Source: Escherichia phage OLB35
Length of the DNA: 64,000 nucleotides
Sequence record: MH992122.1
Reading direction: 5' to 3' (one strand)
Each line of letters starts with the position of its first letter. The first letter of the stretch is position 1. This document shows positions 36,785 to 40,700 of this stretch, piece by piece. The position numbers and the translations under genes are program-made. Under the pieces are notes generated by a model. It worked only from the letters and a program-made list of their open reading frames with translations, did not search any database and was not told where the DNA came from.

Positions 36785-36812
36785 AATATTTTCCTCGGAT
36801 TAATTCATTAAC

Positions 36813-37064
36813 TTAAATTTCGCGACATGCGATATTATATTCATCCCAGAGGTCGTCATGTGAAGCCTCTACCAATGGAACGATTGTGCCGTTTATGTCT
36901 TCATTATAAGGGCAAATTGTACAGTGCGCATCTTCGAATCGGATGCCTTTGTGTTCAGATTTTTTATAACGCATATCGAATATCTTTGCAAACTTTTCAC
37001 GAGTAATAGTTTTAGCAACTACTTCTGTTCCTATACTTTCGTAATAAACCATTGTTGTCTCCAT
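36813..37064 (-). CDS. Cys/His-rich small protein
   Basis: 83 aa; HCTICPYNEDINGT...CREI. Confidence 0.45.
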   Translation of the reverse strand: METTMVYYESIGTEVVAKTITREKFAKIFDMRYKKSEHKGIRFEDAHCTICPYNEDINGTIVPLVEASHDDLWDEYNIACREI

Positions 37065-37080
37065 TTAATTTGATAGGACT

Positions 37081-37109
37081 ACTATAACATAGCCCTATCT
37101 TGTTGTAAA
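37081..37109 (-). promoter_or_regulatory. Early promoter / PeSL element
   Basis: Minus-strand TTTACA-N17-TATAGT with flanking GATAGGACT/AGCCCTATC arms. Confidence 0.5.
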
Positions 37110-37114
37110 CTGTT

Positions 37115-37312
37115 TTAGCAAGAATAACTAGATGATACCCAGCCTTGAACAGTAATACTATTATTTGATAACGAGATTGCGTCCTGGAGATTCAGACCTG
37201 CATTATCTTCAATCCACAATGTAACTTCTTCACGCTCTTCGGTTGCAATCTGGAACAGGTTTTCTAGAGCAGCTACTGCCGTACGTACAGCACAATCTAA
37301 TTCACGAGACAT
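37115..37312 (-). CDS. Small protein, WVSSSxxC-tail family, member 1
   Basis: 65 aa ending ...VQGWVSSSYSC. Confidence 0.5.
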   Translation of the reverse strand: MSRELDCAVRTAVAALENLFQIATEEREEVTLWIEDNAGLNLQDAISLSNNSITVQGWVSSSYSC

Positions 37313-37321
37313 ATGATTTCC

Positions 37322-37595
37322 TTAACAAGTGTGAGAAGATGCAACCCAACCACCATCTTCAAGGCTCAAGTTGTAGTCGTATTGGTAAACGTCGGCCCAT
37401 TCAGCATAACCGTTTTTTTGTACAACGTTCAAGATCGGCTTTAAGATGTCCTGGTGAATGATAGGTTCCACCCATGCCATAAGCTGGATACAAGTTGAAT
37501 GTTGTGTTTTGTTTATTAGCAATTTCTTTGGCAGCCTCAATAGCTGCATAGATTTTTGCTACAGCTTCAGCCAGTTCGGTTTGTTCTTTAGACAT
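37322..37595 (-). pseudogene. WVSSSxxC-tail family member 2, frameshifted
   Basis: N-terminal frame (37595-37401: MSKEQTELAEAVAKIYAAIEAAKE...YGMGGTYHSPG) and C-terminal frame (to 37322: ...NGYAEWADVYQYDYNLSLEDGGWVASSHTC) each match the intact paralogue. Confidence 0.5.
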
Positions 37596-37604
37596 AATGA
37601 TTCC

Positions 37605-37910
37605 TTAGCACAACGCAGAAGACGAAACCCAAGCACCTTCAGTAATAACGTAACCATTACCTTCACGCTTAACATCGCCACCATTATTTTCAATTTCATC
37701 TTTCATCCACTGGGATACGATTTCACCCTTAGGATAATAAGTACGACCGCTACCATAATCACCTACAGAAAATGATACTGCATATTGGTCTGCGATCTTT
37801 GTTGCTTCTTCTTCGATACGTTCAGCTTGATTCAGAAGTTTATAAATTGCATCTGAAGCGGATTTGGCATCATTAAACTCTGGTACTTTAATTTCAATAA
37901 TCTTACTCAT
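37605..37910 (-). CDS. WVSSSxxC-tail family member 3 (intact)
   Basis: 101 aa: MSKIIEIKVPEF...GDYGSGRTYYPKG...GNGYVITEGAWVSSSALC. Confidence 0.55.
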   Translation of the reverse strand: MSKIIEIKVPEFNDAKSASDAIYKLLNQAERIEEEATKIADQYAVSFSVGDYGSGRTYYPKGEIVSQWMKDEIENNGGDVKREGNGYVITEGAWVSSSALC

Positions 37911-37935
37911 TTTCTACATTCCTTAATAAAGTTTT

Positions 37936-38321
37936 CGATTGTTTCATTTTCACGTTTAGCTAGGAGTTCATTATAACTAATCATTTGAGAAGCGTAAACA
38001 GCATAAATTCAGTTAAGGCTTTTGCATCTTATTTCCTTAACGAATTCCATAGCTTCTTCATATTCATACTTTTTAACAGCTTCGATTGTTTCATTTTCAC
38101 GTTTAGCTAGGAGTTCATTATAACTAATCATTTGAGAAGCGTAAACAACGCCGTCAATAAGAAATCCAACTAATCCAAAGGCAAATCCCATGCCAATACT
38201 CATAATAAAAATTAGAATGTTCTCACCAAGAGAAGGCCAGCATAAATTCAGTTAAGGCTTTTGCATCTTATTTCCTTAACGAATTCCATAGCTTCTTCAT
38301 ATTCATACTTTTTAACAGCTT
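37936..38321. repeat. Segmental duplication, units A-B-A-x-B (A ~65 bp, B ~83 bp)
   Basis: A at 37936-38000 and 38083-38147; B at 38001-38083 and 38239-38321, near-identical; unit A carries GTTTAC-N17-TATAAT on the minus strand. Confidence 0.8.
38009..38203 (-). CDS. Chimeric small membrane protein sharing its C-terminus with the next gene
   Basis: 64 aa; last 22 aa (VKKYEYEEAMEFVKEIRCKSLN) identical to the end of 38248-38640 because of repeat unit B. Confidence 0.4.
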   Translation of the reverse strand: MSIGMGFAFGLVGFLIDGVVYASQMISYNELLAKRENETIEAVKKYEYEEAMEFVKEIRCKSLN

Positions 38322-38640
38322 CATCATACTGAGCTTGGGCTTTTGCGCACTGAACTTTCCATTCTCTTAATCGGGCTCTGTGATGACGTCCTTGGTACCA
38401 ATATCCCATCCAGTTAATAGGCATTAATAAAAACGGTACAATAAGTGGTGCGACGAACATTAATGAAAATGCTGCATCAGACGATATAACTTCACTAGAA
38501 TCTAAAACGGCTCCTATAATCATAAAGATTAAAAATGCTAAAGCTAAAATAGGGCCAAATAGTACTTCATTTGGGATTAATTTACGCTTGTATTCATACG
38601 CCCAGGGCTTACTTGGCATGTATAGGGTTGGCTTTGACAT
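38248..38640 (-). CDS. Membrane protein
   Basis: ~130 aa from the internal Met (MSKPTLYMPSKPWAY...); two TM helices. Confidence 0.5.
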   Translation of the reverse strand: MSKPTLYMPSKPWAYEYKRKLIPNEVLFGPILALAFLIFMIIGAVLDSSEVISSDAAFSLMFVAPLIVPFLLMPINWMGYWYQGRHHRARLREWKVQCAKAQAQYDEAVKKYEYEEAMEFVKEIRCKSLN

Positions 38641-39232
38641 ATTCTCTACATTCCATAATAAATTGCTCAAGGATTAAATTGTTAGTGAAATTAGGACTAA
38701 CAACCATAGTTTCATAAAGCGCATCAATAGCACTTAAAGCATCAACTCTCTTAAGCAAAGGCTTGCCTTCATACATAGTTTCAGAATCGACGATTAACGT
38801 AAAGTAGTATTTTTTATTATCGACTAGAACTTCTGTATCGATATAAAACATATTAGTCCTCAGAAGCTTATCTCTAAAACCATAATAATCTTCAGAGCGT
38901 TCGCTGATATATTCCCATTCAGTGTTTAAACAACAAACAGACCACGTAGGAGCAACGAAATCAGTGAATCTAATATCATGGTCTGCAACTAGTTTAGCAA
39001 TAGCTCCGATATCATGAATCATAATACCTGGGGCTAATAAAGATTTTCTGCTATGGCTAGCCGTTTTCTCGGTGGTCTCATAAGAAGACGACCAGTACCA
39101 TTTACGTCCGGTTGCAACATATCGTAATGAATCAACTAAAGACGTAGGTGGATTTACCTTATCTCGGAACTCTTCGAACATTGAGTCAATATCATTATTT
39201 TGGTTTCGCATGTTAACTCCTTTATTATCCAA
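38609..39232 (-). CDS. Hypothetical protein
   Basis: 207-aa ORF; start may be at 39211. Confidence 0.5.
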   Translation of the reverse strand: MDNKGVNMRNQNNDIDSMFEEFRDKVNPPTSLVDSLRYVATGRKWYWSSSYETTEKTASHSRKSLLAPGIMIHDIGAIAKLVADHDIRFTDFVAPTWSVCCLNTEWEYISERSEDYYGFRDKLLRTNMFYIDTEVLVDNKKYYFTLIVDSETMYEGKPLLKRVDALSAIDALYETMVVSPNFTNNLILEQFIMECREYVKANPIHAK

Positions 39233-39260
39233 AAGGAGGACCGGAGTCCTCCGTATTATT

Positions 39261-39854
39261 TTATTTCAAAGAGTTAATATATTCTTGTACATCAGCAGAA
39301 GTGGTTTCGACACCGGCTGGAGTGCCATTGAACGTTTCAACACGAGTCAGAGTGTCTTCGATATCAACCTTAGTCAGTGCAGCAATTTCAATCACATCAT
39401 CAGCCGTAGAGATACCAAGGGCATTGGCTGCTCGAGTTTCACGAATGTATTCGAGTTTGATTGCCAGATTCTGACGAGCATCATCAAGTTCAACCACCTT
39501 ACGAGCAATTTCAATTCGCATAGCGGCATAACCGTCAGCTTTTGTATTAAGTTGTTCGGCAGTTCGACGATACAGAAGACCAAGCTTAGCATGCATGGTA
39601 ACATCTTGTCCTTCAGCCAGGAGCTTACGAATTTCACGTTCCTTAGAAGCGGCTTGCTTGTTCTTTTCATTAACAAGTTCGCGAATACGTTTTTCTTCAT
39701 TAATAGATTTAACAGAAGCCGTTTTTAGTTCTTTGATTTGGGTAATCAACTTATCTGCAGCTGCGTTATACTGTTCTTCGACAGTCAGATTTTTAGCCAT
39801 AGCAGTACCCAGTTTAGTGCGGATGAATTCAACAAGTTTCTTCAGTGTGTTCAT
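39261..39854 (-). CDS. Alpha-helical coiled-coil protein (possibly PspA/IM30-like)
   Basis: ~198 aa, Ala/Lys/Glu/Arg-rich heptad pattern; family assignment is tentative. Confidence 0.4.
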
Positions 39855-39924
39855 ATTATTACCTTTCAATTGGTGGTTTATTATCCAATGAGAGCATTAT
39901 ACTCTGCTCTCAAGAGTTTGTAAA

Positions 39925-40152
39925 TTATTTTTTAATCAAATTGACATAAAACTTGGCGTCTTCCGGGTGCATGCCTTCGCAGTATTCTTCAACCATGAAC
40001 TTCTTAACAGCTTCATAAGGACCACTCAGATTAAGCTCAGTTGTCCAAAACTTGGAATCTTGGGCTGAATCGATACGAACTTCAGGGTGTCGGTTGCGAA
40101 TAACTTCTTCGGTGTATTCATAATCAACGACATCAATACTAACTTTAGCCAT
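39925..40152 (-). CDS. Hypothetical protein
   Basis: 75 aa: MAKVSIDVVDYEYTEEVIRNRHPEV... Confidence 0.5.
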   Translation of the reverse strand: MAKVSIDVVDYEYTEEVIRNRHPEVRIDSAQDSKFWTTELNLSGPYEAVKKFMVEEYCEGMHPEDAKFYVNLIKK

Positions 40153-40700
40153 TTTGTTTCTCCTCTGTAGTTGATAAGTCTTAACTATAGTATCACCATC
40201 ATTGGTGTTTGTACATCATTATTTTTAATTTTTCCAACTTAACAACCTTCAGCCAAGATACAACAGAGTTTTTATCTGAGGATTCAAATTCAGGCATTGG
40301 ACTTTCACCGCGAATAACTTCTTCGGTGTATTCATAATCAACGACATCAATACTAACTTTAGCCATTTTGTTTCTCCTCTGTAGTTGATAAGTCCTATAG
40401 TATCACCATCATTGGTGTTTGTACATCATTTATTTTTAATTTTTCCAACTTAACAACTTGTAGTGTCCTTCATTCATACGTGGTTTATCCCAAGAAATAC
40501 TAATATATGATTCGCCATCAATAGCTTTTTCTTCACCACCACCACTGATAGTCCTCTGTAGTTGATAAGTCCTATAGTATCACCATCATTGGTGTTTGTC
40601 AACTATTATTTTTAATTTTTCCAACTTAAAACTTGTAGTGTCCTTCATTCATACGTGGTTTATCCCAAGAAATACTAATATATGATTCGCCATCAATAGA
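40085..40700. repeat. Three tandem copies of a ~160-230-bp module (gene 3' end, promoter, leader, gene 5' start)
   Basis: Core ...ttttgtttctcctctgtagttgataagtc(c/t)ta...tagtatcaccatcattggtgtttgt... recurs at ~40153, ~40366 and ~40549 with flanking duplicated coding ends. Confidence 0.8.
40199..40366 (-). CDS. Chimeric 55-aa ORF created by the duplication
   Basis: MAKVSIDVVDYEYTEEVIRG...; first 19 aa identical to the start of 39925-40152, then diverges. Confidence 0.3.
   Translation of the reverse strand: MAKVSIDVVDYEYTEEVIRGESPMPEFESSDKNSVVSWLKVVKLEKLKIMMYKHQ

Follow-up and report, generated by a model that had tools for sequence, protein, structure and literature searches.

T4 uses short-homology illegitimate recombination for deletions and duplications, and with such events, as with template switching of the FoSTeS/MMBIR type, the locus described here shares several joints of 2–3 nt, direct orientation of the copies, a combination of duplication and deletion, and a position in a non-essential hyperplastic region. 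It differs from them in that two natural alleles contributed the pieces, and in that the net change in length relative to one of these (allele I, see below) is exactly zero; the mechanism is here read from sequence only. Described T4 deletions and duplications that end at repeats of a few base pairs include the HPR deletions of Mosig et al. 1998, in so far as these are cited in PMC2839356.

A second described system is that of the PeSLs, which consist of an early promoter, a stem-loop and an AT-rich tract, are repeated through hyperplastic regions, and recombine by homology (PMC2839356; PMC4122927). In PeSL cassettes and mini-circles (Arbiol et al. 2010, PMC2839356; Comeau et al. 2014, PMC4122927), an early-type promoter (TTTACW-N17-TAYWAT class) is found beside a hairpin rich in AT, in the gap separating a stop codon from the following SD and ATG. 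The present locus resembles these cassettes in being tied to the presence or absence of a small ORF and in having direct repeats that could excise a small circle. However, its breakpoints lie outside any cassette homology, its hairpin is weak and not conserved, and its promoter is normally part of coding sequence, with no dispersed repeat family.

The third point of comparison is a natural allele of the same locus, found in phages such as p000v, CCU7, moha and LF82-41, from which the gene e.3 has been deleted. This allele shares with the window (the whole stretch of 64,000 nucleotides that was analysed) the junction …TTTATGCTG/TTTACGC… between copy 1 of unit B and copy 1 of unit A (B1 and A1, listed below), as well as the e.4 tail variant and the retained promoter, and about 300 nt are identical to p000v. 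Upstream of the B1/A1 junction, the window has in addition one further copy each of B and A, together with 90 nt from the 5′ part of e.3; none of the deletion-allele phages has these. We propose that the locus is probably the product of a recent, strain-specific and complex rearrangement of the non-essential gene e.3, through microhomology-mediated illegitimate recombination or template switching between two natural alleles.

Gene content of the locus

By its sequence, the window is that of a Mosigvirus, an RB69-like T-even phage, and the 2-kb neighbourhood of the locus was matched at 90–99% identity by 146 phage records. The corresponding genes in RB69, phage 55 and Shf125875 are e.5, e.4, e.3 and RB69ORF139c/138c. 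In the RB69 annotation e.3 encodes a 119-aa predicted membrane protein; normally it starts with an ATG embedded in the e.4 end and stops with a TGA that overlaps the start codon (ATG) of the gene that follows. Alignment of the same locus with these three phages revealed that unit A corresponds to the 3′ coding part of e.3 and unit B to the 3′ end of e.4, and that A plus B have taken the place of 147 nt in the middle of e.3 (segment m, with the second hydrophobic segment). The e.4 allele of the window is nearly identical to that of phage CCU7. The features of the locus are the following:

38248–38640, minus strand: e.4 (RB69 name), intact, encoding a predicted membrane protein of 130 aa; matches phrog_2604 over positions 1–130 of 130 (E 3.8e-64)
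38238–38322, minus strand: unit B, copy 2; the final 24 codons of e.4 with its stop and a further 10 nt, bearing the 17-nt tail variant TAACTGAATTTATGCTG
38244–38286 (copy at 38005–38047), minus strand: AU-rich hairpin of 13 bp with a 16-nt loop, enclosing the former SD and ATG (38266) of e.3
38148–38237, minus strand: segment x; 90 nt of e.3, from its 5′ part with the first transmembrane helix; same sequence as in RB69 and Shf125875
38009–38203, minus strand: chimeric remnant ORF of 64 aa, composed of e.3 residues 22–41, the C-terminal 22 aa of e.3 and the C-terminal 24 aa of e.4
38081–38147, minus strand: unit A, copy 2; 3′ coding part of e.3 with a promoter-like TTTACG-N17-TATAAT at 38145–38117, inside the chimeric ORF
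37999–38083, minus strand: unit B, copy 1; duplicate of the e.4 end with the hairpin at 38005–38047, giving the chimeric ORF its 24-aa tail and stop codon
37934–38000, minus strand: unit A, copy 1; promoter-like site at 37998–37970, in its native position upstream of the next gene
37907–37933, minus strand: last 8 codons of e.3 (NFIKECRK-stop), with an SD and an ATGA overlap onto the downstream gene start
37605–37910, minus strand: downstream gene of 101 aa, RB69ORF138c/139c homolog ending in ...WVSSSALC, with the promoter-like site of unit A upstream

The downstream gene is one of three tandem small paralogs at 37115–37910 (homologs of RB69ORF136c, 137c and 138c/139c), each ending in W-V-[S/A]-S-S-x-x-C and belonging to phrog_899 and phrog_4882, both of unknown function. 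For the neighbouring proteins, these three included, Pfam gave no hit above threshold and no PDB sequence matched. At 37413–37419 the coding strand of the window has a run of seven A residues where all six fetched relatives have six, and the extra A shifts the frame by +1, breaking up the RB69ORF137c homolog (90 aa) into ORFs 37401–37595 and 37322–37549; the gene is either a genuine pseudogene or disrupted only by a sequencing error in the homopolymer. A 22-nt similarity (91%) was furthermore seen between 37909–37930 at the 3′ end of e.3 (..ENFIKECRK) and 38641–38662 at the 3′ end of e.5 (..EQFIMECRE), both stretches lying directly before the start codon of the next gene. Between e.6 and e.5, a perfect GC-rich hairpin on the minus strand (39235–39252; GGAGGACC/GGTCCTCC) is followed by a T-run; it is terminator-like, and the corresponding SA35RD annotation is that of a rho-independent terminator.

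Structure of the repeats

A repeat search resolved the region 37934–38322 into two exact direct repeats, both at 100% identity: unit A of 67 nt (37934–38000 = 38081–38147, at a spacing of 147) and unit B of 85 nt (37999–38083 = 38238–38322, at a spacing of 239). Adjoining units overlap by 2–3 nt (CA, TTC). Their order is A-B-A-x-B on the plus strand, which in the coding direction reads e.4...B–x–A–B–A–tail–next gene, all local genes being on the minus strand. An earlier note on this DNA had reported the same order, with coordinates for A and B that were right to within 1–2 nt, and the duplication that it described is real, exact and recent, the copies of 67 and 85 nt being 100% identical. Because an 18-nt piece of B is expected only 0.02 times in shuffles of the window, a chance origin of exact repeats of this length can be excluded. 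Apart from its own duplicate, no further copy of unit A was found within the 2.5-kb region searched (37000–39500). ORFs 38009–38203 and 38248–38670 have a C-terminus in common, as the earlier note had said of two genes; its length is 24 aa (EAVKKYEYEEAMEFVKEIRCKSLN) and not 22.

Two natural alleles and the hybrid in the window

Searches with the boundary between the e.4 end and x, and with the boundary between x and A, sorted the 139 GenBank relatives that match the locus into two alleles. Allele I, in 110 of them, has the coding order e.4–b–v′–x–m–A–tail and an intact e.3 of 119 aa. In the other 29 (allele II), e.3 is deleted and the order is e.4–b–v–A–tail; here e.4 has another 17-nt tail, v (TAACTGAATTTATGCTG), at its end, and this tail is followed without a gap by the –35 of the promoter-like site in A. 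Members of allele II include CCU7, p000v, moha, FL31, PTE-Eco05, LF82-41 and one IMG/VR contig. The v/A joint is identical in all of these; the e.3 deletion thus had a single origin and later spread onto diverged backgrounds.

The window follows neither order and reads e.4–b–v–x–A–b–v–A–tail, a hybrid present in 0 of the 139 relatives; comparison of the locus among close relatives, a check named beforehand, thus returned two natural alleles and left the window on its own. Its parts can nevertheless be assigned. The stretch 38238–40246 is 99.7% identical to CCU7 (allele II), and the tail variant in unit B copy 2 is, judged by its sequence, typical of the e.3-deletion allele. Segment x (38148–38237) matches allele I of RB69 and Shf125875 without a difference. 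The right-hand b–v–A (37783–38083, about 300 nt), with B1 and A1, is identical to allele II of p000v, and 36811–37999 shows 2 differences from Shf125875 (allele I). Three joints are then novel in the window (v/x, x/A and A/b), the fourth, B1/A1, being the natural deletion-allele junction. What the earlier note had missed was that A is normally the 3′ coding end of e.3, which has been destroyed here, and that the B/A junction pre-exists in 29 relatives.

None of the v/x, x/A and A/b joints was contiguous in 50,697 phage records, a collection from which the genome of Escherichia phage OLB35 is absent; the matches obtained were joins of several pieces, and the search of phage records with the boundary between the e.4 end and x gave no full-length match above 88.5%. 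Nor were the three joints found in IMG/VR, JGI metagenome contigs or GTDB genomes; the IMG/VR result counts for little, as positive controls showed that this collection holds only one contig per natural allele.

Fate of e.3 and the chimeric ORF

As read from the aligned sequences, e.3 is destroyed, both its start context and its second transmembrane segment having been lost. Because of the allele-II tail variant, its own SD and ATG (38266) now read MQKP-stop (38252–38266). The ATG at 38203, with which ORF 38009–38203 opens, is an internal e.3 methionine without a Shine-Dalgarno sequence, and residues 22–41 of e.3 in this ORF correspond to the first hydrophobic helix only. Against the e.3 family phrog_2330, the ORF aligned with profile positions 22–42 alone (E 2.8e-5), compared with 1–122 (E 4e-50) for e.3 of RB69, and against the e.4 family only its tail matched. 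It thereby falls short of a full-length match to the two-helix e.3 family of about 120 aa, the second hydrophobic segment and the native start being gone.

Among 5.8 billion protein clusters, the chimeric architecture was found in one protein from one genome, that of Escherichia phage OLB35 (Mosigvirus utam; genome of 169,140 bp). This protein, AYR04047.1, is annotated as hypothetical with a length of 60 aa and is 100% identical to the ORF in the window, so that the window most likely is OLB35. No record was returned when the 64-aa ORF, e.4 and P0001 were looked up as exact proteins, and a literature search on phage OLB35 yielded nothing useful.

ORF 38009–38203 is best read, on these comparisons, as a pseudogene remnant. 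It had been described as a chimeric gene; a chimera of e.3 and e.4 parts it is, but as a remnant with neither the e.3 start nor an SD. The second A copy lies inside this ORF as claimed, and its supposed translation is unproven given the MQKP-stop at the e.3 start and the lack of an SD at 38203. Since 29 relatives are without e.3 altogether, the loss of this gene was presumably neutral.

The promoter-like site in unit A

Both A copies carry TTTACG-N17-TATAAT on the minus strand, at 37998–37970 and 38145–38117. The site had previously been noted as GTTTAC-N17-TATAAT; it is present in both copies, with a spacer of 17 when counted from TTTACG and of 18 when counted from GTTTAC. The latter is the geometry of T4 early promoters, in which GTTTAC occupies –36 to –31 (PMC1524935). 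Promoter-like matches are not enriched in the region over shuffles (10 found versus 11.6 expected), and the site in A is accordingly a match to consensus only.

At the same site and on the same strand, Nolan et al. 2006 predicted two RB69 promoters, Pe:70143 (HMM score 4.9, weak) and Pm:70132 (score 16.2) (PMC1524935, additional files 3 and 4). In contrast to RB69, the window has the site twice, and neither copy is preceded by the A-rich tract of allele I (…AAGAAAAATAAAAAG) before the –35. In the SA35RD record the A site is annotated as a T4 middle-type promoter, GCTT-N14-TATAAT. The 20 nt upstream of the –35 are 65% AT for A1 and 55% AT for A2, no richer than the genome. The A copy at 37934–38000 is placed as the promoter of the gene at 37605–37910, as proposed before and as in all relatives, and the predicted promoter for the downstream WVSSSxxC gene cluster is present twice, 147 bp apart. 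That the allele-II deletion ends immediately upstream of the –35 suggests that the site is needed for the downstream genes.

Origin of the rearrangement

The copies in the window are identical and in direct orientation, and the novel joints, which are absent from the 139 relatives, fall at microhomologies of 2, 3 and 3 nt (TG, TGT, GAA); with random breakpoints, the joint chance of this is 7e-4 to 2e-3. Such microhomology at three joints is a signature of illegitimate recombination or template switching, the former having been one of two mechanisms suggested in the earlier note. On this reading, the left flank and first b–v would derive from a CCU7-like allele-II parent, x from an allele-I genome, and the right-hand b–v–A from an allele II identical to that of p000v, with downstream genes closest to those of Shf125875. 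The simplest route we infer would start with a 147-bp tandem duplication of [A–b–v] in an allele-II genome via the GAA microhomology; during a mixed infection, exchange with an allele-I genome would then have left x behind as a patch of 90 nt, joined at TG and TGT. Because the copies are still 100% identical while allele II has gathered SNPs, the event should be young. A literature search on T4 microhomology duplications yielded nothing useful.

Some points speak against this reading. It requires at least two or three non-homologous joints, its intermediate haplotypes (allele II with the tandem duplication; v directly before x) were seen nowhere, and the structure is known from one assembly, in which the homopolymer frameshift 500 bp away (37413–37419) could hint at some sequencing error.

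A rival view is that no such molecule exists, and that a stock containing both allele-I and allele-II genomes, or the use of an allele-I-type reference, led an assembler or polisher to a chimeric consensus. Counted from the first b through the last A, the total length equals that of allele I (322 nt), x is identical to allele-I references, the two flanks resemble different relatives, a single record supports the structure, and the homopolymer frameshift is nearby. We nevertheless regard an artefact as unlikely. No overlay or reference-guided scheme that we constructed reproduces B–x–A–B–A, as x would need to be overwritten too; specifically, an overlay of allele-II reads on an allele-I reference would put A immediately behind the first B and leave e.4 sequence left of the second, and the window shows neither of these. 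Three junctions at 2–3 nt microhomology are, moreover, the signature of a biological joint, and isolated indels relative to CCU7 are few elsewhere in the 64 kb, arguing against a generally error-ridden assembly. Fine-scale mosaicism is also normal in T-even phages. Finally, a natural allele matches B1, A1 and their surroundings exactly over about 300 nt, and this together with the B1/A1 joint rules out a synthetic, accidental or in-silico overwrite.

The equal length is the only really odd feature of the locus, and independent illegitimate events do not predict it. From the first b to the last A, window and allele I both measure 322 nt: the 147 nt of m are replaced by 64 + 83 = 147 nt, and the 17 nt of v′ by the 17 nt of v. 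Ancient homology between m and A plus B was rejected as the cause, their alignment identity being at random level and their translations unrelated. The equality may be a coincidence, helped by both coding joints being in frame. Alternatively, it might be a mechanistic footprint, with exchange between e.3+ and e.3-deleted genomes held in register by flanking homology, within a synapsed joint molecule, through copy choice or branch migration across the heterology; we consider this quite improbable. If it were true, the locus would be a trapped intermediate of gene gain and loss, and its 85- and 67-nt repeats would continuously shed circles of 239 bp and 147 bp and regenerate the natural deletion allele.

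That selection maintains the structure, either for a functional 64-aa chimeric membrane peptide (an e.3 transmembrane helix with an e.4 tail) or for tandem promoters raising expression of the downstream WVSSSxxC genes, also appears very improbable. Both novel coding joints (x/A and A/b) are in frame, which has a chance of about 1/9, the chimeric ORF retains one hydrophobic helix, and the promoter-like site is duplicated. However, the ATG at 38203 is without an SD and the e.3 initiation region stops after 4 codons, e.3 is dispensable in 29 relatives, and the structure occurs in one genome only. Exact repeats, furthermore, should be lost fast through the recombination system of the phage itself, as in T4.

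The second mechanism in the earlier note was PeSL-mediated exchange. In a scheme of this type, a mini-circle of x–A–B (239 bp) or B–A (147 bp) would have integrated through homology of the promoter/stem-loop cassette, as for RB49/phi1. Formally, the structure does equal a Campbell-type integration of a B–x–A circle into allele II. Allele II and B1/A1 also have a PeSL-like anatomy, with early-promoter hexamers at 17-nt spacing (as consensus matches, in both A copies) and a hairpin set 5 nt ahead of the –35 of a T4-early-type promoter, in the interval from the e.4 stop to the following SD and ATG; this hairpin, which belongs to unit B, is absent before A2. The tail variant of the deletion allele creates it (–10.8 kcal/mol, z –2.39), and no such hairpin arises from RB69-type sequence (z +0.67). 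However, unit A by itself does not fold significantly (z –0.35), and the hairpin is not conserved among allele-II phages, in which CTT/CTG/CTC (a Leu codon in the stem) and GAAATT changes are uncompensated. Two defining features of PeSLs were looked for in vain: the sequence before the –35 is AT-rich in neither promoter copy, and no dispersed family of cassettes with homology to mediate the exchange was seen in the 2.5 kb searched for further copies of A (37000–39500).

Genuine PeSL-like repeated cassettes do exist 2 kb upstream (40165–40620), to which unit A shows no similarity. They are part of a second cluster of segmental direct repeats at 40096–40699 (88 nt at 99%, 69 nt at 71–88% in three copies, and 91 nt at 91%), in which each repeat has a gene 5′ end, an A-rich tract and promoter-like hexamers flanking a small CACCA/TGGTG stem-loop, and the number of these cassettes varies among the window, CCU7 and p000v. 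With breakpoints that are microhomologies, and with a circle that would itself require the three novel microhomology joints and leave nothing for cassette homology to explain, an origin by PeSL shuffling is extremely improbable.

Consequences for the locus

Under microhomology-mediated rearrangement between the two alleles, the exact 67- and 85-nt repeats should destabilise the locus, with allele II restored if the B copies recombine and e.4–B–x–A produced if the A copies do. For annotation, the 60/64-aa "hypothetical protein" would be an e.3 pseudogene remnant with a copy of the e.4 tail, and no new gene family. The event is of an ordinary kind for this hypervariable T-even region and has no evident functional significance. 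It offers a clean natural example of how the hyperplastic regions of T-even phages are remodelled, with co-circulating alleles of a dispensable gene giving rise to a dead remnant, a formally chimeric ORF and a duplicated promoter.
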